This document shows, in pieces, positions 5,238 to 62,785 of a stretch of 64,000 nt of DNA (position 1 is its first letter; each line of letters opens with the position of its first letter). This stretch comes from a phage. The translations under genes were made by a program, and so were the position numbers. The notes under the pieces were generated by a model. That model had not been told where the DNA came from, ran no database searches, and was given only the letters and a program-made list of their open reading frames with translations. The stretch lies in the sequence record NC_135728.1; one strand, written 5' to 3'.

Positions 5238-5265
5238 GGGAGGCTTGCGCCTCCCTTTTCCTTTT
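5238..5265 (+). terminator. rho-independent terminator-like hairpin
   Basis: GGGAGGC-TTGC-GCCTCCC stem-loop followed by TTTTCCTTTT just after stop of 4246..5229. Confidence 0.5.
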
Positions 5266-5274
5266 GGAGGCACT

Positions 5275-6093
5275 TTGAGCAAGAAAGAGTCCAACGACAA
5301 ATATTACACAAACCCTGAGTATGCAGAATATCTTGTTGGTAAAGTAAAAGACAAGTATGGGAATTGTGCATACGTTGAGCCTTCTGCTGGAAGGGGTTCT
5401 TTTTCAAAACTATTTTCAAAGATACTGTCGTACGATCTAGTACCAGATCCTGAATTTGAAGGACCAACACAGTGCATTCAGGCAAACTTCTTGGAGGTGC
5501 ATCCTAAGGCAGATGTCTTCATAGGTAACCCACCATTTGGCAAGAATTCATCTTTAGCTTGCAAATTCTTTAACCATTGTGCATCATTGCTAGAGCTTGG
5601 CGGGGCTATAGCCTTCATCTTGCCACGGACATTTGAAAAAATATTTTTTGCAAACAAACTGGACATGTCTATGCACCTTGTCTACAGCGAAAGGTGCCCT
5701 AAGAACTCGTTTTTACTTAATGGCAAACCTTACGACGTGCCATGTGTTTTCCAAATTTGGGAGAAAAAGGCGTGCAATAGGGATCCTGTAGAGATTGGAG
5801 AGAATAAGTTATTTTCTTTTAGCACTCCGGATGACTACGACTTCTGTGTAAGACGTGTTGGGTATAATGCTGGAAAAGTATTGGGGGATGATGACCCAAA
5901 ATCTGAAGAATCGACATATTTCATAAAATCTTTAGTTGACGGTGTTGACAGAGTGTTTGCCGAATGCTATTCTTCTTTTCAAGAAGAAGCAGGTAAGACT
6001 GCTGGAATGAAGAGTATAGGCAAGAAAGAACTACAATACATTTTGGAGACCCGGTATGATCAAAAGCATAGACTTGACCAAAGAACTTACTGA
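5275..6093 (+). CDS. N6-adenine DNA methyltransferase (NPPF motif)
   Basis: SAM-binding-like EPSAGRGSF and catalytic GNPPFG; likely TTG start at 5275 after ggagg RBS (ORF track starts 5245 inside the terminator hairpin). Confidence 0.55.
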   Translation: MSKKESNDKYYTNPEYAEYLVGKVKDKYGNCAYVEPSAGRGSFSKLFSKILSYDLVPDPEFEGPTQCIQANFLEVHPKADVFIGNPPFGKNSSLACKFFNHCASLLELGGAIAFILPRTFEKIFFANKLDMSMHLVYSERCPKNSFLLNGKPYDVPCVFQIWEKKACNRDPVEIGENKLFSFSTPDDYDFCVRRVGYNAGKVLGDDDPKSEESTYFIKSLVDGVDRVFAECYSSFQEEAGKTAGMKSIGKKELQYILETRYDQKHRLDQRTY

Positions 6094-6733: not shown

Positions 6734-7347
6734 TGGATATTATTGTTCTTAACGCCCCACCCAGCAGCGGTAAGGATCACATTGCAGATCTCTTGTTGGA
6801 AGCTATTCCTAACTCACACCATCGTGAGGTTAAGGAGATGCTCTTCAGCGTGGCAATTAAGGCAGCTGGTGTAACTCCTCAACTCTGGAATGCACTTTAT
6901 GACCGCCACTACAAAGAAGAGCCTTGCCCTTTCTTAATGATAGACGGCAAGCATGTTTCTCCGCGAGAGTGGATGATCCATTGTAGTGAAAATCTGATTA
7001 AACCTATCTTTGGTGAAGATGCTTTCGGTAAGGCCGCAGTCACATCCTTGAAGAAAGATTTCCCTAAAGGTAAAGGGGTTGTTGTTTACTCCGATGGTGG
7101 ATTTAAAGAGGAGCTGGCGTGCCTTAGTGAGTACGCATACAGCACAGGTGGAGATCTGTTGTTGTTCCGTATTCACCGTGTCGGATATGACTGGGGAAAT
7201 GATTCCAGAACCTATCTAAGTCTGGAAAAGAACGGAATAAAAGGGATTGAGTTCGATGTTGTAAATCCTGAAGGTGCACCTTGGGAATGTGCATCGGAGA
7301 TTGTGTGCAAGTATATTGATGCTAAAGAGGCCCAAGAAGAATGTTAA
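6730..7347 (+). CDS. deoxynucleoside monophosphate kinase-like
   Basis: N-terminal IIVLNAPPSSGKDHIADLL resembles the P-loop of T4 gp1 dNMP kinase (LSGVKRSGKDTTADFI). Confidence 0.5.
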   Translation: MMDIIVLNAPPSSGKDHIADLLLEAIPNSHHREVKEMLFSVAIKAAGVTPQLWNALYDRHYKEEPCPFLMIDGKHVSPREWMIHCSENLIKPIFGEDAFGKAAVTSLKKDFPKGKGVVVYSDGGFKEELACLSEYAYSTGGDLLLFRIHRVGYDWGNDSRTYLSLEKNGIKGIEFDVVNPEGAPWECASEIVCKYIDAKEAQEEC

Positions 7348-7934
7348 TCGGAATTGATGTAGATTTGACACTGGTAGATTCAGGAACAGCATGGTGGGAG
7401 TGGTTGGAGCGTTTGTATGGTCCAGCCAGTAAGACAGTCGTTAAACCTTCTAATGGGCTGATGTATTACGATCTGTCAAAGTATTGGCCTGATCGCCCCA
7501 AAGAAAACATCATAGGACCTTTTGATTTCTGGAGTGATCCGTTCCTCTACGACTTCCTTAAGCCTGAAGAGGGGGCTATTGAGGTTATGAAAGATTTGGT
7601 GGCTCGCGGTCACAAGCTCGCATTTATCTCGGTATGCAAGAAAGGTCACCTTGCATCTAAATCAAGGTTCTTAAAGCGTTGGACCAGTGATTTTATGGAT
7701 CTGGATGATCACACCCAGGGTCACGGCTTCTACGCCACACATTTCAAAGGTAATGTGGCTGTAGATGTTATAATTGACGACAGGCATGAATACCTGAACC
7801 AATTCGCTTCACGACCTGAAGTTATTAAAATCCTAAAAGACACACCTTATGAGCAATTCGAGGAGTTAAAGGTCAGTGTTGACTATACCACTAATAGCTG
7901 GTATAAAATAGGAAAGTTTTTAGAAGGTATTTGA
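7341..7934 (+). CDS. HAD-superfamily phosphatase (5'-deoxynucleotidase-like)
   Basis: N-terminal GIDVDLTLVD matches HAD motif I (DxDxT/V). Confidence 0.5.
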   Translation: MLIGIDVDLTLVDSGTAWWEWLERLYGPASKTVVKPSNGLMYYDLSKYWPDRPKENIIGPFDFWSDPFLYDFLKPEEGAIEVMKDLVARGHKLAFISVCKKGHLASKSRFLKRWTSDFMDLDDHTQGHGFYATHFKGNVAVDVIIDDRHEYLNQFASRPEVIKILKDTPYEQFEELKVSVDYTTNSWYKIGKFLEGI

Positions 7935-7935
7935 A

Positions 7936-8136
7936 ATGGGCAGATGTTCTAAAGGTGGCGATCCTGTAGTCAGATACGGTGACTGGCTGGAGGTATATGA
8001 TCTGGGGGGCAAGCTAGTGTATGCCTCCAGGATCACCCAAGACATGTGCTCTGATATGTTTAACAGATACCTTGCATTTAAGGCTAACATAAGCCCAGAC
8101 GAAATTTCCAAAATTAAAACAAGGAGAGCTAAATAA
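7936..8136 (+). CDS. hypothetical protein
   Basis: 66-aa ORF abutting neighbours. Confidence 0.35.
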   Translation: MGRCSKGGDPVVRYGDWLEVYDLGGKLVYASRITQDMCSDMFNRYLAFKANISPDEISKIKTRRAK

Positions 8137-9119
8137 TGCTAAAACTGTGCACTGCAAAGATTATTGCTGACAGCATTTCCGAGAAAGGTAAGCGTATCAC
8201 CACTTTTGAGCTAGAGTATCCTCGAATTATTCACTCAGAGCTTATGACGCACCGAGTGTTCAGCCGAAACGCCATGTCTTCCCGTGCAGTACCTGTCGGC
8301 AAGATGCTGCAACAGATTGTGGAGAACCCTGCAATGCCAGTACGCTTCGGTGTAAATAAGCGGGGGATGGAAGATGGTGGAGAACACGATCAAAAGATCC
8401 GTGTAGAGTACACTGACATGGAGTTAACTCCTGAAGAGTTTTGGAAAGAAGCTGCAAAAAACGCAGCTTGGCATGCAGAGAAGTTCGCCCTTGCTGGTTA
8501 CCATAAGCAAGTATGTAACCGCTTAGTGGAGCCGTTTCAGCGCATGAAAACAGTTGTAACAAGCACAGAGTGGAATAATTTCTTCCATCTCCGTTGCTGG
8601 CACGATGCGGACCCTACTATTCAGATGTTGGCTAATTGCATGTGGGAGGCTCTTATGAATAGCACTCCTGAAATCCTTAAACCTGGTCAATGGCACACAC
8701 CATATGTAGAGCACGTTTATTTGGACGGCGAGTTTAACTATGCTGTACGTGACACAGAAGGAAAGCTTTGCATTCTCGATACTGGAGAAGCTCTGTCTAT
8801 TAGTGCTAGTTGCTGTGCACAAGTATCTTATCGAAATATTGACAGCACGTTTGAAAAGGCAGACAGTGTGGCTAAAAAATTGATTGGTGGGGATCGTATT
8901 CATGCAAGCCCTTACGAGCACCAAGCAACACCTATGGATCACGATAACGCAATGGAACGTTTAAACTACTATCTATCTTCATGTGAAATCACACAAGACA
9001 GCTGTGTTTGGCAGGAAGGTGTAACCCATCAAGACCGTGATGGTAAATTCTGGTCTGCCAACTTTTGTGGGTGGGTTCAGCACAGACAACTGCTTAATAA
9101 CCACTTCGTGAAAGGTTAA
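8136..9119 (+). CDS. thyX: flavin-dependent thymidylate synthase ThyX-like
   Basis: THRVFSRNAMSSRAV aligns with the ThyX RHR-x7-S signature; sits in nucleotide-metabolism module; 327 aa is longer than typical ThyX. Confidence 0.5.
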   Translation: MLKLCTAKIIADSISEKGKRITTFELEYPRIIHSELMTHRVFSRNAMSSRAVPVGKMLQQIVENPAMPVRFGVNKRGMEDGGEHDQKIRVEYTDMELTPEEFWKEAAKNAAWHAEKFALAGYHKQVCNRLVEPFQRMKTVVTSTEWNNFFHLRCWHDADPTIQMLANCMWEALMNSTPEILKPGQWHTPYVEHVYLDGEFNYAVRDTEGKLCILDTGEALSISASCCAQVSYRNIDSTFEKADSVAKKLIGGDRIHASPYEHQATPMDHDNAMERLNYYLSSCEITQDSCVWQEGVTHQDRDGKFWSANFCGWVQHRQLLNNHFVKG

Positions 9120-19714: not shown

Positions 19715-20248
19715 ATGACTTGTGCTAGAAAACCTGATGAACAACGTAACGCATACGATGAGTATGTGACACCGGAGTGGTGTGCAGAAGGGCTGTATGA
19801 CCTTATTCCGTTCCCAGAGGACTGGACCTACTTAGAGCCTTGCAGGAATAGTGCCTCAGGTGTGTTCTACTCCCGTATGCCGTTAGGATCTGCATGGGGA
19901 GAAATCCAAGAAGGTGTTGACTATCTGAATACAGAATACAACCATGTTGACTGTATTATCACCAACCCACCATACAGTCTGGCCCGTGAGTTTGTAGACA
20001 AGGCGTTGAAAGATGCTGACGTAGTTATTATGCTTTTGCGTCTTAATTTTCTGGAAAGCAAAGCCAGATTTGAATGGTGGCTTGATAATGCACCTACCAC
20101 TGTGATCACAATATCTAAGCGTCCATCATTTCAATCAAATGGTAGAACTGACGGGCAAGCATATGCATATTTTGTGTGGGATAAGAAAAACCGTTTAGAC
20201 TTGCCGCCATTTATGTGGTTGGCACCCCCAGAGGTAGACCTGAAATGA
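19715..20248 (+). CDS. DNA methyltransferase-like (NPPY motif)
   Basis: 177 aa with catalytic-type motif IITNPPYS; short for a complete methyltransferase. Confidence 0.45.
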   Translation: MTCARKPDEQRNAYDEYVTPEWCAEGLYDLIPFPEDWTYLEPCRNSASGVFYSRMPLGSAWGEIQEGVDYLNTEYNHVDCIITNPPYSLAREFVDKALKDADVVIMLLRLNFLESKARFEWWLDNAPTTVITISKRPSFQSNGRTDGQAYAYFVWDKKNRLDLPPFMWLAPPEVDLK

Positions 20249-47696: not shown

Positions 47697-48254
47697 TCAA
47701 CACTCTTTGTATTCCACCACGATAATATCTATATCAAAAGTGGCAAGGTTAATAACGTCCTCTACATGCTCCCACTTCAAACCGCCTATGCCGCACCCGA
47801 TTTTGGGGATGTAGAATGGTAAAGTCGATCCACTGAATACCTCATTGACCAGCTCAAAGCCTTTCAGGATTGAGAAATATTCAGCATTAGGCCCTGGGTA
47901 GAACTGAGTATACAGATTGATTCCGTAGACAATACCTCTCGGAGATGAGTGCTCCCATCGGGAGAACGCACCCAGTTTACTTAGGCAACCGTGTCTGGTC
48001 TCTTTGTCGGCTGACAATGCTTGAGGAAACTCACGGGCAATCTGTTTTGCTATGCCCTTACCCATCGTGTGGAAGCAGTTACAACCGTGGATCAGGTGAC
48101 CAGCACCGCTCTTAAAAAGGGAGATTAAATCTCCCTCTACAGTATCAATAATCACGGTATGCCAGCTCCTCTTCCGCAATTTCAAAAAACTCATCCCAAC
48201 CTTGTGGCATATTTGAGTTGCCGAAGTGGCTTTCATAGTAAAGGTTCTCACCAC
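47697..48254 (-). CDS. macro domain (ADP-ribose binding/hydrolase-like) protein
   Basis: VIIDTVEGDLISLFKSGAGHLIHGCNCFHTMGKGIAKQI matches the macro-domain N-terminal signature; true start probably internal because ORF overlaps upstream gene. Confidence 0.55.
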   Translation of the reverse strand: MVRTFTMKATSATQICHKVGMSFLKLRKRSWHTVIIDTVEGDLISLFKSGAGHLIHGCNCFHTMGKGIAKQIAREFPQALSADKETRHGCLSKLGAFSRWEHSSPRGIVYGINLYTQFYPGPNAEYFSILKGFELVNEVFSGSTLPFYIPKIGCGIGGLKWEHVEDVINLATFDIDIIVVEYKEC

Positions 48255-56939: not shown

Positions 56940-59018
56940 TTAAAAAGGTGTTTCATCGTCTTCAAAACCGGGAACAGGGTCAGAGGACGGATCATCATAC
57001 GGAAGGTCTTCTTGTGTGTCAACAGGGTTAACAGTAGGAGTTACAACCTTATCAGCCACAACCCTACCTACAGGTGTTTCTACAACTGCGTGCTCTTGAT
57101 CCTCAAACATAGCTTGAGGTCTCCAAACAACCTCCCCACCTTCTCCGTCTGTGAACATCTGCATTTCTTTGTCCCAGTACCAGTTGCTGGCATCATGGAA
57201 CTTACCTGTGTGGGGATCCATAACTAAGGTATCCGCAATGCCTAACGTTTTTGCTGGGCGGTTTTTAAGACCTACCAGTCGGACACGTCCACGGGAACGA
57301 TCCACCATCTCTTCTGCCTCCACCCCAACAACTACCCAGCTAAGTTGCTCCAATCCGGCACTACCCCGAAGGTTCTCTTTTCGTACAGGATACCAGAAAG
57401 GTAACGGATTCCCATCCTTGTCCTTTGGAGGCACAATCTCTGTGCGTTTCAGGTGAGCGATCACCAAGATAAATACATTAAACTGCTTACAGAACGCGGC
57501 TAGTTGGGTCATAGCCATGTCCAGCTCTTTTCGCTCATCCTTAACATTAAGCCCTGAAATTACCATGGACAGGTGATCCAGCACAATATAACGGCAGTGA
57601 TACAGACACACCATTTGTTTAAGCTTAGTGATCAACTCATCTACAGGAATAGACCCAAAATGCTTGAACACTTTGATTTTTCCCGCCTTGGCCCAAGATT
57701 GGTGAATCTCAGCATGCTCCTGATCAGTCAGGAACTGACTAGGGTCTTCAACAAACTCTTTAACATCAAACCCCAACTGGTTGGCGTATAGAGAGTTAAT
57801 TGCTTCCTCAGGGTCCTCTTCAAGGTGAATCAGACACAGGCGATCATCCTCTTCATAATCATCGGCTTTAGGGCATGTAGGATCCATCAAGTATTTTGCA
57901 ATGCAGTGTTCTAGTTTCTTGGCTACAGTTGTTTTACCACCGCCAGATGGGCCTGTCAGCATCATCAAGGTGCCTTTGTGAAGTCCTTTCAGCATCTTCT
58001 GCAATTTAGGGAACTCCGCGCTGATATCTACGCCATTAGAAGTCTTCTTACGAAGAGATTCAATGGAGAAGTCTTCTAAATCAGATACAGCATCAGGCAC
58101 ATATTTGACTGGGTGACGGAACATGTTGACAATATCTTCCAGCTTTTTAGCCTTCAGCATGTCACGGATATCTTTTACACCGTCAGGGTCGTTTACCTCA
58201 CTGGGGTATTCCACGTGGTAAACGTTATCAGCCATCAAAAATGCCGCGATATTATGTGTGGCTTCAACACCTTTGATAACGTGTTTTTGCTTCTCTACCT
58301 CGTTAGCTGCATCGTTGTCCATTGCAAGGACCACTGTTCCGTAGCTACGGATAAATTTCTCATTGTTTGCAAAAGTATCTACTGCGTTTGCACATCCACA
58401 GTTAATTCCAACAAAAGGCAGGCAGGGTTTTCCTGCCAGATCACCCCCGTTGATAACTGCATCGATCCCGTCCTGGACCTCTTTAGCCCACTGTTTCACC
58501 TTTGCCGGGGCTTTAGCGTTGGTGAGAATCCCTTTTACTTGTATCTGATATGCAGCCTGCCATGCTGCAATAACATCGCCTTCCCCCTCACAAACGTTAA
58601 TCTGCTTACGGTTGTTAGAAGATGCACACAGCTTTTGCCCAAACATTTGGGAGTTAGCCTTTACGATCCCAACCGTCGTAAAGTGCCCACGTTGCTCTTT
58701 GGGGATCGTCCAGTCACGCTTTTTGAAACCGGACAGATTCCCGTAGCGGTCGTAATATGGAAAATATGTTGCAGTAACTGTCACACCGTCTTCTTGGGAC
58801 AATGCTGATCGCACACCAAAATATTGTGCAGCCATCAGACCGATATTTTGTTGTGGGACAGGGACGATTTTAGTATTTTCTAAAACAGTCTCTACAGTTT
58901 CAACCTCTTTTTCATCACGATAGTCTCGTTTCACACTTCCCCCACTTTTATACTTAGTTGCTTTCGGGTTTGGCTCACCGAAACGGTTATATGCAGATGC
59001 CATAAATTTACTTCCCAT
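56940..59018 (-). CDS. primase-helicase (TOPRIM primase plus DnaB-like helicase)
   Basis: TOPRIM-like CEGEGDVIAAW in N-terminal half; Walker A MLTGPSGGGKTT and Walker B-like LIHLEED in C-terminal half. Confidence 0.75.
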   Translation of the reverse strand: MGSKFMASAYNRFGEPNPKATKYKSGGSVKRDYRDEKEVETVETVLENTKIVPVPQQNIGLMAAQYFGVRSALSQEDGVTVTATYFPYYDRYGNLSGFKKRDWTIPKEQRGHFTTVGIVKANSQMFGQKLCASSNNRKQINVCEGEGDVIAAWQAAYQIQVKGILTNAKAPAKVKQWAKEVQDGIDAVINGGDLAGKPCLPFVGINCGCANAVDTFANNEKFIRSYGTVVLAMDNDAANEVEKQKHVIKGVEATHNIAAFLMADNVYHVEYPSEVNDPDGVKDIRDMLKAKKLEDIVNMFRHPVKYVPDAVSDLEDFSIESLRKKTSNGVDISAEFPKLQKMLKGLHKGTLMMLTGPSGGGKTTVAKKLEHCIAKYLMDPTCPKADDYEEDDRLCLIHLEEDPEEAINSLYANQLGFDVKEFVEDPSQFLTDQEHAEIHQSWAKAGKIKVFKHFGSIPVDELITKLKQMVCLYHCRYIVLDHLSMVISGLNVKDERKELDMAMTQLAAFCKQFNVFILVIAHLKRTEIVPPKDKDGNPLPFWYPVRKENLRGSAGLEQLSWVVVGVEAEEMVDRSRGRVRLVGLKNRPAKTLGIADTLVMDPHTGKFHDASNWYWDKEMQMFTDGEGGEVVWRPQAMFEDQEHAVVETPVGRVVADKVVTPTVNPVDTQEDLPYDDPSSDPVPGFEDDETPF

Positions 59019-59802
59019 TAATTCTGCTCCTTACCACAGGCTCGTTTGCTAAGAATACGGCTTTTGCCCAGCCACGGGGCGTGAGGCTTCGAATCATCTT
59101 CGTCCTTGCACTTTTTCCACCTAGCTTAGCGTGTTGCATGGAATACCCGCTAACCGCGTCAACTATTTGCGGGACAGGTTTTGTGGCCGGGATTATAAAT
59201 CCATTACCTATCCAGCCGCAAGTTATTTTTGGATAGGCATCGCGTGGAGCTATAAATTCAGGAAACCAAGGGTTTACATCATCCTCCGGTAAATACCCGC
59301 CATAGTCAGAAGGATGAAAACGGTAATCAGGTTTGCGCCACAGTGTGGACATAACACCTACAGGATTCTCTACATGCCACGGGCAATCGTAAATCTCTCC
59401 CAGCTCTTCCGCAACCCGAGCATCCTTTACAGCATTAATTTGGATCATAGGGTCCTTAGCCAGCTTTTTCTTAAAATGTGCAGCACCTGATACCGCTAAA
59501 TGCGTGCACGGAGGAAATGCAAGAATAAAGTCTGGAGCTGGGTACATGCAAAAAGTTTCCTGAGGGAACCATGGGTCAATCCAATAATCCACATAGTGAA
59601 TGTTGGGATGATCGGTTATCACCTCTGCATAACTGCCGTGATCAGCACCTTCTGCATTAAAGCACAGGCACAGGTACCCAGCTTTTGCCCAGTCAATGAC
59701 TGCACCACCAGACCCGTCAAATAGACTCCACACAACACCTTTGTGGTAGTGTTCTTTGTAGATAAATTTCAATTTGCTGTCTCCTAATGCAAAAAGCCCC
59801 AC
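59008..59802 (-). CDS. C5-cytosine methyltransferase-like protein (PCT variant)
   Basis: Motif I SLFDGSGGAV, motif IV AFPPCTHLAVSGA with Thr replacing the usual Gln, motif VI HVENPVG; 264 aa with no obvious target-recognition domain. Confidence 0.5.
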   Translation of the reverse strand: MGLFALGDSKLKFIYKEHYHKGVVWSLFDGSGGAVIDWAKAGYLCLCFNAEGADHGSYAEVITDHPNIHYVDYWIDPWFPQETFCMYPAPDFILAFPPCTHLAVSGAAHFKKKLAKDPMIQINAVKDARVAEELGEIYDCPWHVENPVGVMSTLWRKPDYRFHPSDYGGYLPEDDVNPWFPEFIAPRDAYPKITCGWIGNGFIIPATKPVPQIVDAVSGYSMQHAKLGGKSARTKMIRSLTPRGWAKAVFLANEPVVRSRINGK

Positions 59803-59823
59803 CCTTTCGGGCAGGGCCTAGTG

Positions 59824-60306
59824 TTAAACCCGGATACCTATTGTATACTCGGTGGATACCAATGTCAAATCTAAATTTAAAATTTCTTGCATCTCATAGT
59901 ATGCGTCCAGGGTGAGATACATTTCCCCATCCTTTTCTACATACTTGTCCAAGTGCTTGAGGCATTTCGGATAACTATCGAGTGCAGCTTTCAGACACTC
60001 AAACTCTGTGCTGTTGATGAGTCCTTCCATCTTGGCTACCCGTTCTGGGGTAACGATAGCACTGTAGTGAGATTTAGCTTCCTGAATGCAATGGGTCCAA
60101 GCATCAACTTTCTCTTCGAAAAGTCCGAAGAATTTCTTTTTGGTGAGCTTCAGATTCTTTAAGTGCTTAAGCACTCGGTTGCCGATCACAGCCACATCAC
60201 GAAACTTAAGGATCACTTTGTCGATATCTTCGCGACCTATTTTCACAAAACAGGCCTTACACATTTCAGGGGAGGAATAACCAACTTTCCACATAAAATC
60301 TGACAT
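59824..60306 (-). CDS. hypothetical protein
   Basis: 160-aa ORF with aggaga RBS. Confidence 0.5.
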   Translation of the reverse strand: MSDFMWKVGYSSPEMCKACFVKIGREDIDKVILKFRDVAVIGNRVLKHLKNLKLTKKKFFGLFEEKVDAWTHCIQEAKSHYSAIVTPERVAKMEGLINSTEFECLKAALDSYPKCLKHLDKYVEKDGEMYLTLDAYYEMQEILNLDLTLVSTEYTIGIRV

Positions 60307-60318
60307 ACCACCTTCTCC

Positions 60319-60714
60319 TTATTCCTGAAAAGCAACGATATCATATGAACTTGCAGACGATCCTAGTGAAGAATGACTCCAGTCTAGGTTATCAGAGTAG
60401 TCAGCGTACTGTGCACCACTACGTAGTTTATATTTTACCCACTTACCTGGTGCAGGGTTTTCACCACCTTCCCATACTTCCCAGTCTTCTGACAGGCCGT
60501 CCTGAGGGTAGTCATCCACCTCACTAATAATCTTAGGGTTTGGCACCAAGACCCATGCAGGCTCTTCCTTCCGGGTAAGTGTCCACACAGCGTAGGTATC
60601 TGAGCAGGCGCATGATAGCAAAGTATATCCACTATTCAGAACTTCTGCAAGCTCTTTTTCAGCATCTTCCAATTTGGTTAAGTGGTATTGGATAATCTTT
60701 ACACCTGTAATCAT
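60319..60714 (-). CDS. hypothetical protein
   Basis: 131-aa ORF. Confidence 0.45.
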   Translation of the reverse strand: MITGVKIIQYHLTKLEDAEKELAEVLNSGYTLLSCACSDTYAVWTLTRKEEPAWVLVPNPKIISEVDDYPQDGLSEDWEVWEGGENPAPGKWVKYKLRSGAQYADYSDNLDWSHSSLGSSASSYDIVAFQE

Positions 60715-61016
60715 CAGAAACCTCCAACTTCTTCAGCAAATGCAGCTGCTGTCGTCGCTGCATCCAGATAGGACTCTAGTTCACGGGCTGCACGTTTGTA
60801 AATTGAGTGGCGCATATCGTTTGGTAGTTGGTGGAAGTCCACCTCTTCACCGTTGTGGTAAACACGCACATCGGTAATTTGTCTAAATCCGTAATAGTCA
60901 ACATCAGAGTCACGGCACTCCGAGTCTGGCAACTGGACAACTGCTTGAGCTTCCACAGTAAACATATCGTCAAGTTCGAAATCGATTTCAAAAGTGTATG
61001 GTTTATAACGTTTCAT
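60714..61016 (-). CDS. hypothetical protein
   Basis: 100-aa ORF, coupled. Confidence 0.45.
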   Translation of the reverse strand: MKRYKPYTFEIDFELDDMFTVEAQAVVQLPDSECRDSDVDYYGFRQITDVRVYHNGEEVDFHQLPNDMRHSIYKRAARELESYLDAATTAAAFAEEVGGF

Positions 61017-61076
61017 CGTTTAGTGCTTCCTTAGTTTTTGTGGGGAGGAGTGCCTCCCCTTTAGACTAACATCTTA

Positions 61077-61418
61077 CTACTGAAGGTCTTCAGAGTCAAG
61101 CTCAAAAAGAATCAAACTGTGCATTCCTGCAGAGAGATCAACGCACCCTGCAATAATAAGGGTCTGATAGTAAGGTTCAGCACCCTCAATGTCTTCGTTA
61201 AAATCTACAACAAGATAGTCACCTTTGTTAAAGGTGTATTTGTCCGATGTAAACGCAAAACCTGCCCAGTCCCCGACTGCAGGATCTTTATCAACCACCT
61301 TTGTTAGCAGCAGGTCTTTTTCACGAGATCTTTTAGTAAAATCGTGAATCACAACATCCTTCTCTTCAGGAGTTGGATTGCCACACACGTAGTTAACTAT
61401 ATTTCTCCACAAACTCAT
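61077..61418 (-). CDS. hypothetical protein
   Basis: 113-aa ORF, start overlaps helicase stop. Confidence 0.45.
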   Translation of the reverse strand: MSLWRNIVNYVCGNPTPEEKDVVIHDFTKRSREKDLLLTKVVDKDPAVGDWAGFAFTSDKYTFNKGDYLVVDFNEDIEGAEPYYQTLIIAGCVDLSAGMHSLILFELDSEDLQ

Positions 61419-62785
61419 ACGTCCCCCTCTTCTGCTCTGGTTTCAAAATCTTTCCTGACAATTTTGTCTAAGTCAGGGAATGTTGTATTGTAAAACTCTA
61501 CGACTCGCGGGTCAACAATAATGTCAACTTCTCTTAGTGGACGCAACAAGTTTATTCCTTGTATTGTCTTAACTCTACTCAAAGCAACATACGTCATCCC
61601 AGGAGAGAAAGCTCCGTTCTTTCCAAGGTCCAGGTTGTAACAATCTAGCGTAAGTCCTTGACTTTTATGAGATGTTACGGCGTACCCAGATTTCAGAGGA
61701 AGTTGCCTGTATGATCCAATCACTACCCTCTCTATAAACTTCTCCATCTTCCTTTCTGCAATGTTGTATCTTTGAGATGGCTTATACTCGTTATTCTCCC
61801 ACAACCTTTGCTCTATGTCAACCTGTGTTCCATCTTCAAGCTCCACCACCACCGCCTTGTTCTTAAATTTAACAATCGTGGCACGTGTTCCGTTAACATA
61901 ATAAGGTACTTTGTGCGTCGGGTCAACATCGTTGGCGGTTATCATAACCTTCATGCCAATTTTCAACTTCATCTCCTGCTCAACTGGCAGGGTGGAGGGA
62001 AACTTACCCTTCATTTCACCAGTGTATACCTTTTCTGGGGCGTTGATGGCATCATAGAACCTTCTGTTCACTTCCTCCGCTTGTTTGTTGGTGGCGCAAA
62101 TTGTGAGAGCGTCTGTTGGTACACCGCCTTTGTAACAACGAGCATTAAGTTCTGCTACAACCTCTTTTATGCGACGACCCTCACGAACACAGTTGAGCAT
62201 TGTGGCAAATCGAATAGACTCCTGTCGGAACTGATCTACTAGGGCTATGTTGTGGAGGTCAAGCTCTTTCCAAGATTCGGTATAGCAACACAGGTCCGTA
62301 TGGTAGAAGTTGAAGTAGGCTTCCTTCTCCATAGAAGAGACAACAGGAGGTGCTTGGTAAAAATCACCAAACAATATGACCTGTATGCCTCCGAAAGGTT
62401 TGTCATTTTTTCGAAGGAAGCGGAGTTTCCTATCCATCTCTATAAACTTATCAGCACGGATCATAGAGATTTCATCGATAATTAGGATGGTAAATGCCTT
62501 GCTTTTCAAAGGCTTTGCTGTTTTTGCCCTTATTGCAGTCCAGTCCGACTCCATGCTCACACCTGCTGCAAGATCGAATGTTCGGTGTGCTGTTGCTCCA
62601 TTAACGTTTAATGCGGCTACCCCTGTCGGGGCAACCGTTATGCAAGAGTCTCCATACATGGACTGGATCATGTTGATGAGATACGTCTTCCCACAACCTG
62701 CGGGTCCTGAAACGAAGACATTCTCACCGCTCATGATTGCAATGAGGGCAGCATCTGTGCCTACGTCATACTGCCCTTTTTCCAT
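61415..62785 (-). CDS. Pif1/RecD-like (Dda-type) SF1 helicase
   Basis: Walker A VSGPAGCGKTYL, Walker B ILIIDEISM, C-terminal GMTYVALSRVKT motif typical of RecD/Pif1 family. Confidence 0.75.
   Translation of the reverse strand: MEKGQYDVGTDAALIAIMSGENVFVSGPAGCGKTYLINMIQSMYGDSCITVAPTGVAALNVNGATAHRTFDLAAGVSMESDWTAIRAKTAKPLKSKAFTILIIDEISMIRADKFIEMDRKLRFLRKNDKPFGGIQVILFGDFYQAPPVVSSMEKEAYFNFYHTDLCCYTESWKELDLHNIALVDQFRQESIRFATMLNCVREGRRIKEVVAELNARCYKGGVPTDALTICATNKQAEEVNRRFYDAINAPEKVYTGEMKGKFPSTLPVEQEMKLKIGMKVMITANDVDPTHKVPYYVNGTRATIVKFKNKAVVVELEDGTQVDIEQRLWENNEYKPSQRYNIAERKMEKFIERVVIGSYRQLPLKSGYAVTSHKSQGLTLDCYNLDLGKNGAFSPGMTYVALSRVKTIQGINLLRPLREVDIIVDPRVVEFYNTTFPDLDKIVRKDFETRAEEGDV

Follow-up and report, generated by a model that had tools for sequence, protein, structure and literature searches.

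The stretch of phage DNA analysed here (sequence record NC_135728.1, 64,000 nt; hereafter the window) carries on its minus strand, at 59008–59802, an open reading frame (ORF) predicted to encode a compact C5-cytosine methyltransferase. In the program-made ORF list it comprised 264 amino acids from a GTG at 59802. An earlier note on this DNA had recognised the motifs FDGSGG, PPCT and ENP in it, and all three were located, at residues 28–33, 97–100 and 145–147 of this 264-residue form. Judging from the sequence, the true coding sequence is most likely 59008–59772, i.e. 254 amino acids from a TTG at 59772, ten codons 3' of the GTG. This form was favoured because the GTG lies inside a terminator-like GC-rich hairpin, direct reading of the sequence placed a Shine–Dalgarno motif (AGGAG, 59781–59785, minus strand) 8 nt 5' of the TTG (59772–59770), the orthologous gene of phage rV5 (gp226) is annotated with a length of 765 bp, and the database cluster P0001, 99% identical to the window methyltransferase, has 254 amino acids. 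Residue numbers below refer to the 254-residue form unless the 264-residue numbering is stated.

Immediately downstream lies a primase/helicase gene (56940–59018, minus strand), whose ATG at 59018 overlaps the 3' end of the methyltransferase gene by 11 nt. The two genes are therefore probably co-transcribed and translationally coupled. On the upstream side, four small ORFs of unknown function separate the methyltransferase gene from a RecD-like helicase gene (61415–62785). The earlier placement of the gene between a primase-helicase and a helicase was thus right about its contact with the replication module, but the second helicase is not an immediate neighbour.

The window belongs to a Vequintavirus (rV5-like coliphage), since the region shared 99% identity with Escherichia phages phiWec193/196 and MiataMamis and 97.5% with rV5. 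Near-identical records label the gene “DNA methyltransferase” or “DNA (cytosine) methyltransferase”, or leave it hypothetical; the orthologues annotated as DNA cytosine methyltransferase were 99.6% identical to the window protein. HHpred analyses of the Vequintavirinae phages Certrevirus CB7 and Septuagintavirus had already given “DNA cytosine methylase”, which is missing from some members of the subfamily according to the same papers (PMC7344957, PMC11370258). The window protein matched PHROG 757, “DNA methyltransferase”, with E=3.4e-87 over residues 10–261 (264-residue numbering). Homologues were found in 1,503 phage records by tblastn, with carriers including Vequintavirus, T1-like Drexlerviridae, Dhillonvirus, Klebsiella Webervirus-type phages, phiKO2, and Vibrio and Arthrobacter phages. 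An exhaustive HMMER scan yielded 1,024 clusters (50% identity) matching the PHROG 757-type family, nearly all of 210–260 amino acids, and the homologues of the window protein numbered 3,549 at E≤1e-3. The family spans 208–285 amino acids with a median of 240. The window protein is a single domain with the full set of family blocks (FPPCT, ENP, Y-x-K-x-T-x-x-W, R-S-x-T-P-x-G). Far from being the oddity as which it had been presented, the gene belongs to a very common and already annotated phage family; it is real but ordinary, an accessory methyltransferase gene of a routine kind, carried by rV5-like, T1-like and many other enterobacterial phages.

Conservation was assessed in two family alignments, one of 108 representatives and one of 83 diverse homologues. 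Motif I (F-D-G-S-G-G; 59704–59721, minus strand) would form the S-adenosylmethionine (AdoMet)-binding loop after β1, and in the structural model it follows the strand at residues 13–17. The E. coli Dcm sequence FAGIGG and the M.HhaI sequence FAGLGG align with it in register. The family consensus at this place is LFD-[YRH]-[TS]-G, the first Gly of FxGxG being Y, R or H elsewhere, and the canonical-looking GSGG is common only to this lineage and the T1-like branch. Motif IV (P-P-C-T; 59503–59514, minus strand) contains the predicted catalytic Cys89 (C99 in the 264-residue numbering), equivalent to C82 of K42 Dcm, a studied homologue discussed below. Its loop resembles PCNDLS of DNMT3A and was aligned to SPCNDLS. 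The cysteine was present in 104 of the 108 representatives and the following Thr in 96, so that PCT in place of PCQ, which the earlier note had singled out, is indeed there but is the family norm and no peculiarity of this gene. Motif VI (E-N-P; 59362–59370, minus strand) supplies Glu135, which was aligned to the ENV motif of Dcm, HhaI and DNMT3A and corresponds to E128 of K42 Dcm. In canonical C5-methyltransferases, the motif VI Glu protonates cytosine N3. Residues C89, G96, E135, P137, P154, Y180, W187 and P195 were invariant in the 83-sequence alignment. The invariance of C89, E135 and P137, together with the predicted C5-methyltransferase fold, shows that the motifs are not due to chance.

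Further downstream the correspondence is less clear. A motif VIII-like strand (D-A-Y-P-K-I-T-C-G-W; 59212–59241, minus strand) contains Y180, K182, T184 and W187, each conserved in at least 90% of sequences, and K182 corresponds to K175 of K42 Dcm. We tentatively take K182 for the counterpart of the motif VIII Arg: KITCGWIGN was aligned to RARYFWGN of DNMT3A (R790-A-R-Y-F-W), and Y180-x-K182 to its RxR region, both with low confidence. Residues 196–216 (59125–59187, minus strand) form a 21-residue segment at the canonical position of the target-recognition domain (TRD). It is the only hypervariable internal segment downstream of motif VI, with a median of 18 residues across the family (range 8–57) and an entropy of 3.1 bits, compared to 1.6–2.0 bits in the flanking blocks. 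In the model this position is occupied by loops and two short helices rather than by a separate TRD. The protein had been described as unusually small with no obvious TRD, and at 254 residues with a 21-residue variable segment in the TRD slot it is. The conserved C-terminal block (I-R-S-x-T-P-R-G-[FW]-A-x-A-V-F-x-A-N; 59044–59094, minus strand) leads into the terminal helix 233–253. Two runs aligned its R-S-x-T-P part differently, one to motif IX of M.HhaI (RKLHPRECARV) and one to the TRD loop of DNMT3A, both with low confidence, and with equally low confidence the block might be a merged equivalent of motifs IX and X. The distance from motif VI to this block is 86 residues (family median), as opposed to about 150 in M.HhaI. 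The window protein thus shares with the PF00145 enzymes M.HhaI, M.HaeIII and E. coli Dcm the fold, the order of motifs I, IV and VI and the catalytic Cys and Glu, but it has PCT instead of PCQ, ENP instead of ENV and apparently a Lys for the motif VIII Arg, and lacks both a TRD and a recognisable motif X (GN).

The AlphaFold2 model of the window protein had a predicted local distance difference test score (pLDDT) of 94.6 and a predicted template modelling score (pTM) of 0.92. Along the chain it showed β1 with motif I (13–22), β2 ending at residue 39, β3 followed by D66, β4 with PPCT (82–90), helices (94–128), β5 with ENP (132–137), β6 (150–152) and β7 (184–189), with a conserved 30-residue loop (153–183, YGGY...HP...RDAY) between β6 and β7. 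In the model this order matches that of the large domain of canonical C5-methyltransferases. The top 50 Foldseek matches in the PDB were nearly all DNMT3A/B/C, the exception being a prophage C5-methyltransferase (3g7u), with E-values of about 1e-6 and a probability of 1.00. The structure settles the question of the fold: as modelled, the protein folds as a class I methyltransferase, and among solved structures it comes closest to C5 methyltransferases. The resemblance to C5-cytosine methyltransferases that the earlier note had claimed was therefore borne out by motif conservation and by structure prediction and alignment. Identity to the catalytic domains of DNMT3A and DNMT3B (PDB 6u8p, 5yx2, 6f57) was 13–15%. 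Unlike the window protein, the DNMT3 enzymes are eukaryotic, form a DNMT3L-assisted tetramer, have distinct motifs IX and X and read CpG; the likeness implies no evolutionary or functional equivalence.

A member of the family has been studied experimentally. K42, a strain of the Drexlerviridae phage KarlJaspers (Hanrivervirus, T1-like), was used to isolate mutants escaping the retron Ec86/Eco1, and a 711-bp “dcm” gene was disrupted in all of the escapers (bioRxiv 10.1101/2023.08.16.553469). Under its published title, this preprint has 28 citing papers. Expression of K42 Dcm, which its authors modelled on DNMT3A, activated the retron and raised 5-methylcytosine (5mC) on the multicopy single-stranded DNA (msDNA), as determined by liquid chromatography with mass spectrometry (LC-MS), whereas a C82A/E128A/K175A/K176A variant did neither (bioRxiv 10.1101/2023.08.16.553469). 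The gp42 protein of phage damhaus (236 amino acids) was 54% identical to the window protein over its full length (E=1e-85). Its C82, E128, K175 and K176 are precisely those singled out in K42 Dcm, and at gene level it shares 93% identity with the 711-bp KarlJaspers gene labelled “Dcm-like C5 cytosine methyltransferase”. These three agreements place the studied enzyme and the window protein in one family. The residues of the inactive K42 variant are conserved in the window protein as C89, E135 and K182; the fourth is Ile183, at a position where the family varies (47 of the 108 representatives have K). The two proteins have in common the single-domain size, PPCT, ENP, the GSG of motif I and an Asn at motif II. 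They differ in that the window protein comes from a myovirus, has 10–18 additional N-terminal residues and Ile for K176, and is encoded directly upstream of a primase/helicase.

Several observations weigh against assigning this activity to the window protein. The protein had no Pfam match even at E≤10, so that the PF00145 threshold was not reached, and no NCBIfam match. Searches of the PDB sequences with phmmer and the family hidden Markov model returned only insignificant matches, the best being a short-chain dehydrogenase/reductase (SDR; E=0.025), with M.HaeIII at E=0.5. Alignments of the family profile to E. coli Dcm, M.HhaI and DNMT3A with hhalign were likewise not significant (E 0.015–0.13). 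Neither motif VIII (QxRxR) nor motif X (GN[SA]V) was recognisable, there being no RxR and no GN, and residue 39 is Asn, in contrast to the Asp of the family and the Glu of canonical enzymes. While family membership, fold and motif conservation were established in this analysis, 5mC formation in vivo has been reported only for the 54%-identical homologue, so that for the window protein it is predicted by analogy. The CCWGG target of K42 Dcm was in turn assumed from E. coli Dcm and supported only by mutation of the CC in the msDNA stem (bioRxiv 10.1101/2023.08.16.553469). Lastly, as to a possible anti-restriction role, whether Drexlerviridae resisted restriction did not depend in any simple way on their methyltransferase genes in the BASEL study.

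Some of these points are softened by the relatives. PF00145 was matched by 13 of the 83 family members, and 3 of 10 relatives scanned singly exceeded its gathering cut-off (24.7–28.5 bits, cut-off 22), over profile positions 4–94 only, which cover motifs I–IV. The active K42-type protein also has Asn at the position of residue 39. The hhalign targets were single sequences or a shallow profile (E. coli Dcm, M.HhaI with a sequence 100% identical to 10mh_A, and a verified DNMT3A 701–912); a database search starting from M.HhaI yielded no relatives beyond those with more than 70% identity, so no deep canonical profile was available. The same alignments were colinear through motifs I, IV and VI, and through motif VIII for DNMT3A, with F18-x-G20-x-G22, P88-C89 and E135-N136 in canonical order and in register with Dcm and HhaI. 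Because the sequence-profile matches were not significant, it is the predicted structure, the motifs and these bridging members that provide the link to canonical enzymes.

Taking both sides together, we estimate a probability of roughly 85% that the gene encodes an orphan, single-domain, AdoMet-dependent DNA cytosine-C5 methyltransferase of the compact phage “Dcm-like” family (PHROG 757). The residue conservation, read in the light of how canonical C5-methyltransferases work, leads us to infer that Cys89 of the PPCT loop would attack C6 of a flipped-out cytosine, with Glu135 of ENP protonating N3 and Lys182 standing in for the motif VIII Arg. The methyl group of AdoMet would then be transferred to C5, and beta-elimination would release DNA with 5mC. 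Since the enzyme has no separate TRD, the site would be recognised by a few loops, namely the catalytic loop, the 153–183 loop and the variable segment of about 20 residues (196–216). The product may serve to methylate replicating phage DNA pre-emptively, independently of the dcm status of the host, and so to blunt restriction; this anti-restriction role is plausible. As a side effect, the enzyme could be sensed by defences such as retron Ec86/Eco1.

By analogy with K42 Dcm, CCWGG is a candidate target of the family enzyme, to which we give slightly less than even odds. The window contains 124 CCWGG sites (observed/expected 0.83), which neither supports nor contradicts a Dcm-like specificity, and no methylome or nucleoside analysis of rV5-like virion DNA was found in the literature. 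The strongest competing explanation, which we nevertheless consider unlikely, keeps the enzyme class but not the CCWGG specificity: the enzyme would be short-motif or structure-selective, coupled to the replisome and modify many cytosines, for instance on nascent or single-stranded DNA. It corresponds to the broad-specificity enzyme suggested in the earlier note. This would suit an enzyme that has no TRD and a variable segment of only about 20 residues, whose closest solved structures, DNMT3A/B, read just CpG, and whose motif IV, PC[T]DLA, resembles the PCNDLS of DNMT3A. Adjacency to helicase genes in several phage families, and fusion to helicase-type proteins of more than 1,000 amino acids in uncultured phages, point in the same direction. 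Moreover, retron Ec86 is triggered in dcm+ MG1655 by K42 Dcm but evidently not by the Dcm of that host, and over-expression of K42 Dcm is toxic (bioRxiv 10.1101/2023.08.16.553469). That difference from the host enzyme could, however, simply reflect over-expression, and defence was abolished by mutating the CC of the msDNA CCTGG site, which fits a Dcm-like site. Many carriers of the family gene have been propagated on E. coli K-12 MG1655, where dense unspecific methylation should be costly. MG1655 has McrBC, which cuts R-5mC DNA; this makes dense unspecific methylation less likely and is compatible with a C-5mC-type site, CCWGG being one.

The furthest-reaching form of this alternative, in which the whole family consists of TRD-less DNMT3-like methyltransferases that act alongside the phage replisome on a very short or structure-dependent target and are not Dcm (CCWGG) mimics, appears less likely still. 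If it held, 5mC would be expected to occur densely or in an unusual pattern in Vequintavirus DNA, some other C5 adduct being the less likely outcome, and this 5mC pattern would account for the response of retron Ec86 to the phage enzyme and not to the host Dcm.

A different cofactor was also considered. CmoX shows that homologues of C5-methyltransferases can use cofactors other than AdoMet (PMC12783734). The protein would then be a C5 transferase that used carboxy-S-adenosylmethionine (Cx-SAM) as phage CmoX does, and its product would serve as a handle for hypermodification. The family shares P-P-C with the S-P-P-C signature of CmoX, and the nearly invariant Arg228 in the C-terminal block could correspond to R350 of CmoX or N304 of HhaI. 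The Cx-SAM would be at hand, as E. coli hosts make it with CmoA. The alignments to M.HhaI and DNMT3A that bear on the equivalence of R228, however, were conflicting and of low confidence. An Arg at the motif X position is in any case not diagnostic of Cx-SAM, because DNMT3A, which uses AdoMet, has one there (GRSW, which we take to correspond to GNSV of HhaI; both sequences were verified). CmoX of Synechococcus phage S-B43 (SpCmoX, PDB 8yf3) has 333 residues, a full TRD and a requirement for Cx-SAM via R350, and is accompanied by phage CmoA and CmoY genes (PMC12783734). The window protein has FPPC instead of SPPC, and no such partner genes were found: no CmoA, CmoY or amide ligase was detected among the window ORFs scanned or in the MiataMamis annotation from 1 to 113 kb, and nor was a TET/5mYOX protein, a glycosyltransferase or a ThyA-like hydroxymethylase. 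With a homologue that yields plain 5mC by LC-MS, use of Cx-SAM is very improbable.

The pyrimidine hypermodification that the earlier note had entertained is likewise without support, given that no partner genes were found in the ORFs and annotation covered, the plain 5mC produced by the homologue and the type of thymidylate synthase encoded. A ThyA-type deoxycytidine monophosphate hydroxymethylase was rejected as a candidate, the 327-residue “thymidylate synthase” being of the ThyX type. This gene is located at 8136–9119 (plus strand), and its Pfam match covers residues 23–179 only. A gene for an NT5C-like deoxy-pyrimidine 5'-nucleotidase lies at 7341–7934 (plus strand), and an ORF with a partial Macro-domain match at 47697–48254 (minus strand). 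Other sizeable ORFs in the window matched a deoxynucleoside monophosphate kinase, this NT5C-like nucleotidase, ribonucleotide reductases, PhoH, a Clp protease and the Macro domain, or had no match.

Two further readings depart from DNA methylation altogether. An RNA (tRNA) m5C methyltransferase of the DNMT2 kind is very improbable. Least probable of all is that the protein is no methyltransferase but either belongs to another class of Rossmann-fold enzymes or binds DNA without being catalytically active. SDR structures aligned over about 150 residues, the generic Rossmann core, as opposed to about 190 at higher Z for C5-methyltransferases; neither the Cys of PC nor the Glu of EN varies in the 83-sequence alignment, and the activity of the homologue depends on these residues; and family members pass the PF00145 cut-off.

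Upstream of the gene, a sigma70-like promoter (TTGACA, 17-nt spacer, TACAAT; 59840–59868, minus strand) matches the consensus at 11 of 12 positions and is the counterpart of the annotated rV5 promoter P231. Similar early promoters occur near helicase, methylase and polymerase genes in related phages (PMC7344957). The near-consensus promoter and the overlap with the primase/helicase gene suggest that the methyltransferase is co-expressed with replication proteins early or in the middle of infection. The promoter would then drive early or mid-infection transcription of the methyltransferase, primase/helicase and DNA polymerase genes. The GC-rich hairpin mentioned above and the T-run that follows it (59794–59819, minus strand) come within about 20 nt of the promoter, ahead of the methyltransferase start. 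A 71-nt stretch containing the hairpin had a minimum free energy of −23.1 kcal/mol, not exceptional compared to shuffled sequences (z = −1.8). The resulting order on the minus strand from 59868 to 59794, promoter and terminator-like hairpin, then the Shine–Dalgarno motif and TTG of the methyltransferase, is unusual. The hairpin might act as an attenuator, stabilise the 5' end or terminate the upstream operon.

In several phage families the methyltransferase gene either borders on helicase genes or lies a short way upstream of them. The compact fold also recurs in very large proteins of uncultured Caudovirales, as one domain of the BFVD entries A0A6J5SE15 (1397 amino acids) and A0A6J5NPY6 (1126 amino acids). 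One of these giant proteins is named “Helicase/UvrB, N-terminal”, which echoes the helicase adjacency in Vequintavirus, Dhillonvirus and Drexlerviridae.

The window encodes two other putative methyltransferases, both on the plus strand and both Dam-like. The ORF at 19715–20248 (177 amino acids) matched phrog_799 (E=8e-67) and, weakly, the Pfam families Dam and EcoRI_methylase. The ORF at 5245–6093 (282 amino acids) matched phrog_5172, of unknown function, and more weakly phrog_799 over its N-terminal 130 residues; it had no Pfam match. The earlier note had placed methyltransferases at 5275 and 19715 and read them as a sign of multiple DNA modification activities. Both genes exist, but several methyltransferases per phage are routine for this phage group (PMC7344957, PMC11370258). 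An additional insert of about 1.3 kb is present in rV5, ime, isim, JES2013 and “Campylobacter phage” A1xx and absent from the window, so that the methyltransferase content varies within the genus. Its position is between the homologues of the window ORFs 60714–61016 and 61077–61418 (window 61016–61077). In rV5 the insert (gp230; L005 5235–6560) encodes a 441-residue methyltransferase, elsewhere called adenine methylase-like or “BamHI methylase”.

Over the whole window, several palindromes were strongly depleted relative to the Markov expectation (observed/expected): GGCGCC (0/5.7), GGGCCC (1/8.1), CGATCG (1/7.7), GAGCTC (3/13.8) and TGGCCA (2/7.4). The depletion of such GC-rich 6-bp palindromes may reflect restriction-site avoidance. 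GATC and CCWGG were not avoided.

The predicted 5mC in virion DNA would matter for sensitivity to restriction, for nanopore base-calling and for choosing a cloning host, and the enzyme may expose Vequintaviruses to retron Ec86/Eco1-type defences. The family may rank among the smallest C5 DNA methyltransferases and could serve as a compact scaffold for studies of minimal target recognition. Among the carriers were 39 records named Campylobacter phage (MG0656xx: A1xx, C7), 38 of which state Campylobacter jejuni as the host. Of these 39 records, all without annotation, 16 matched the 6.8-kb region of this coliphage-type Vequintavirus by megablast, those listed being about 95% identical to it; the Campylobacter host labels look doubtful, and the phages could, for example, be contaminating coliphages.

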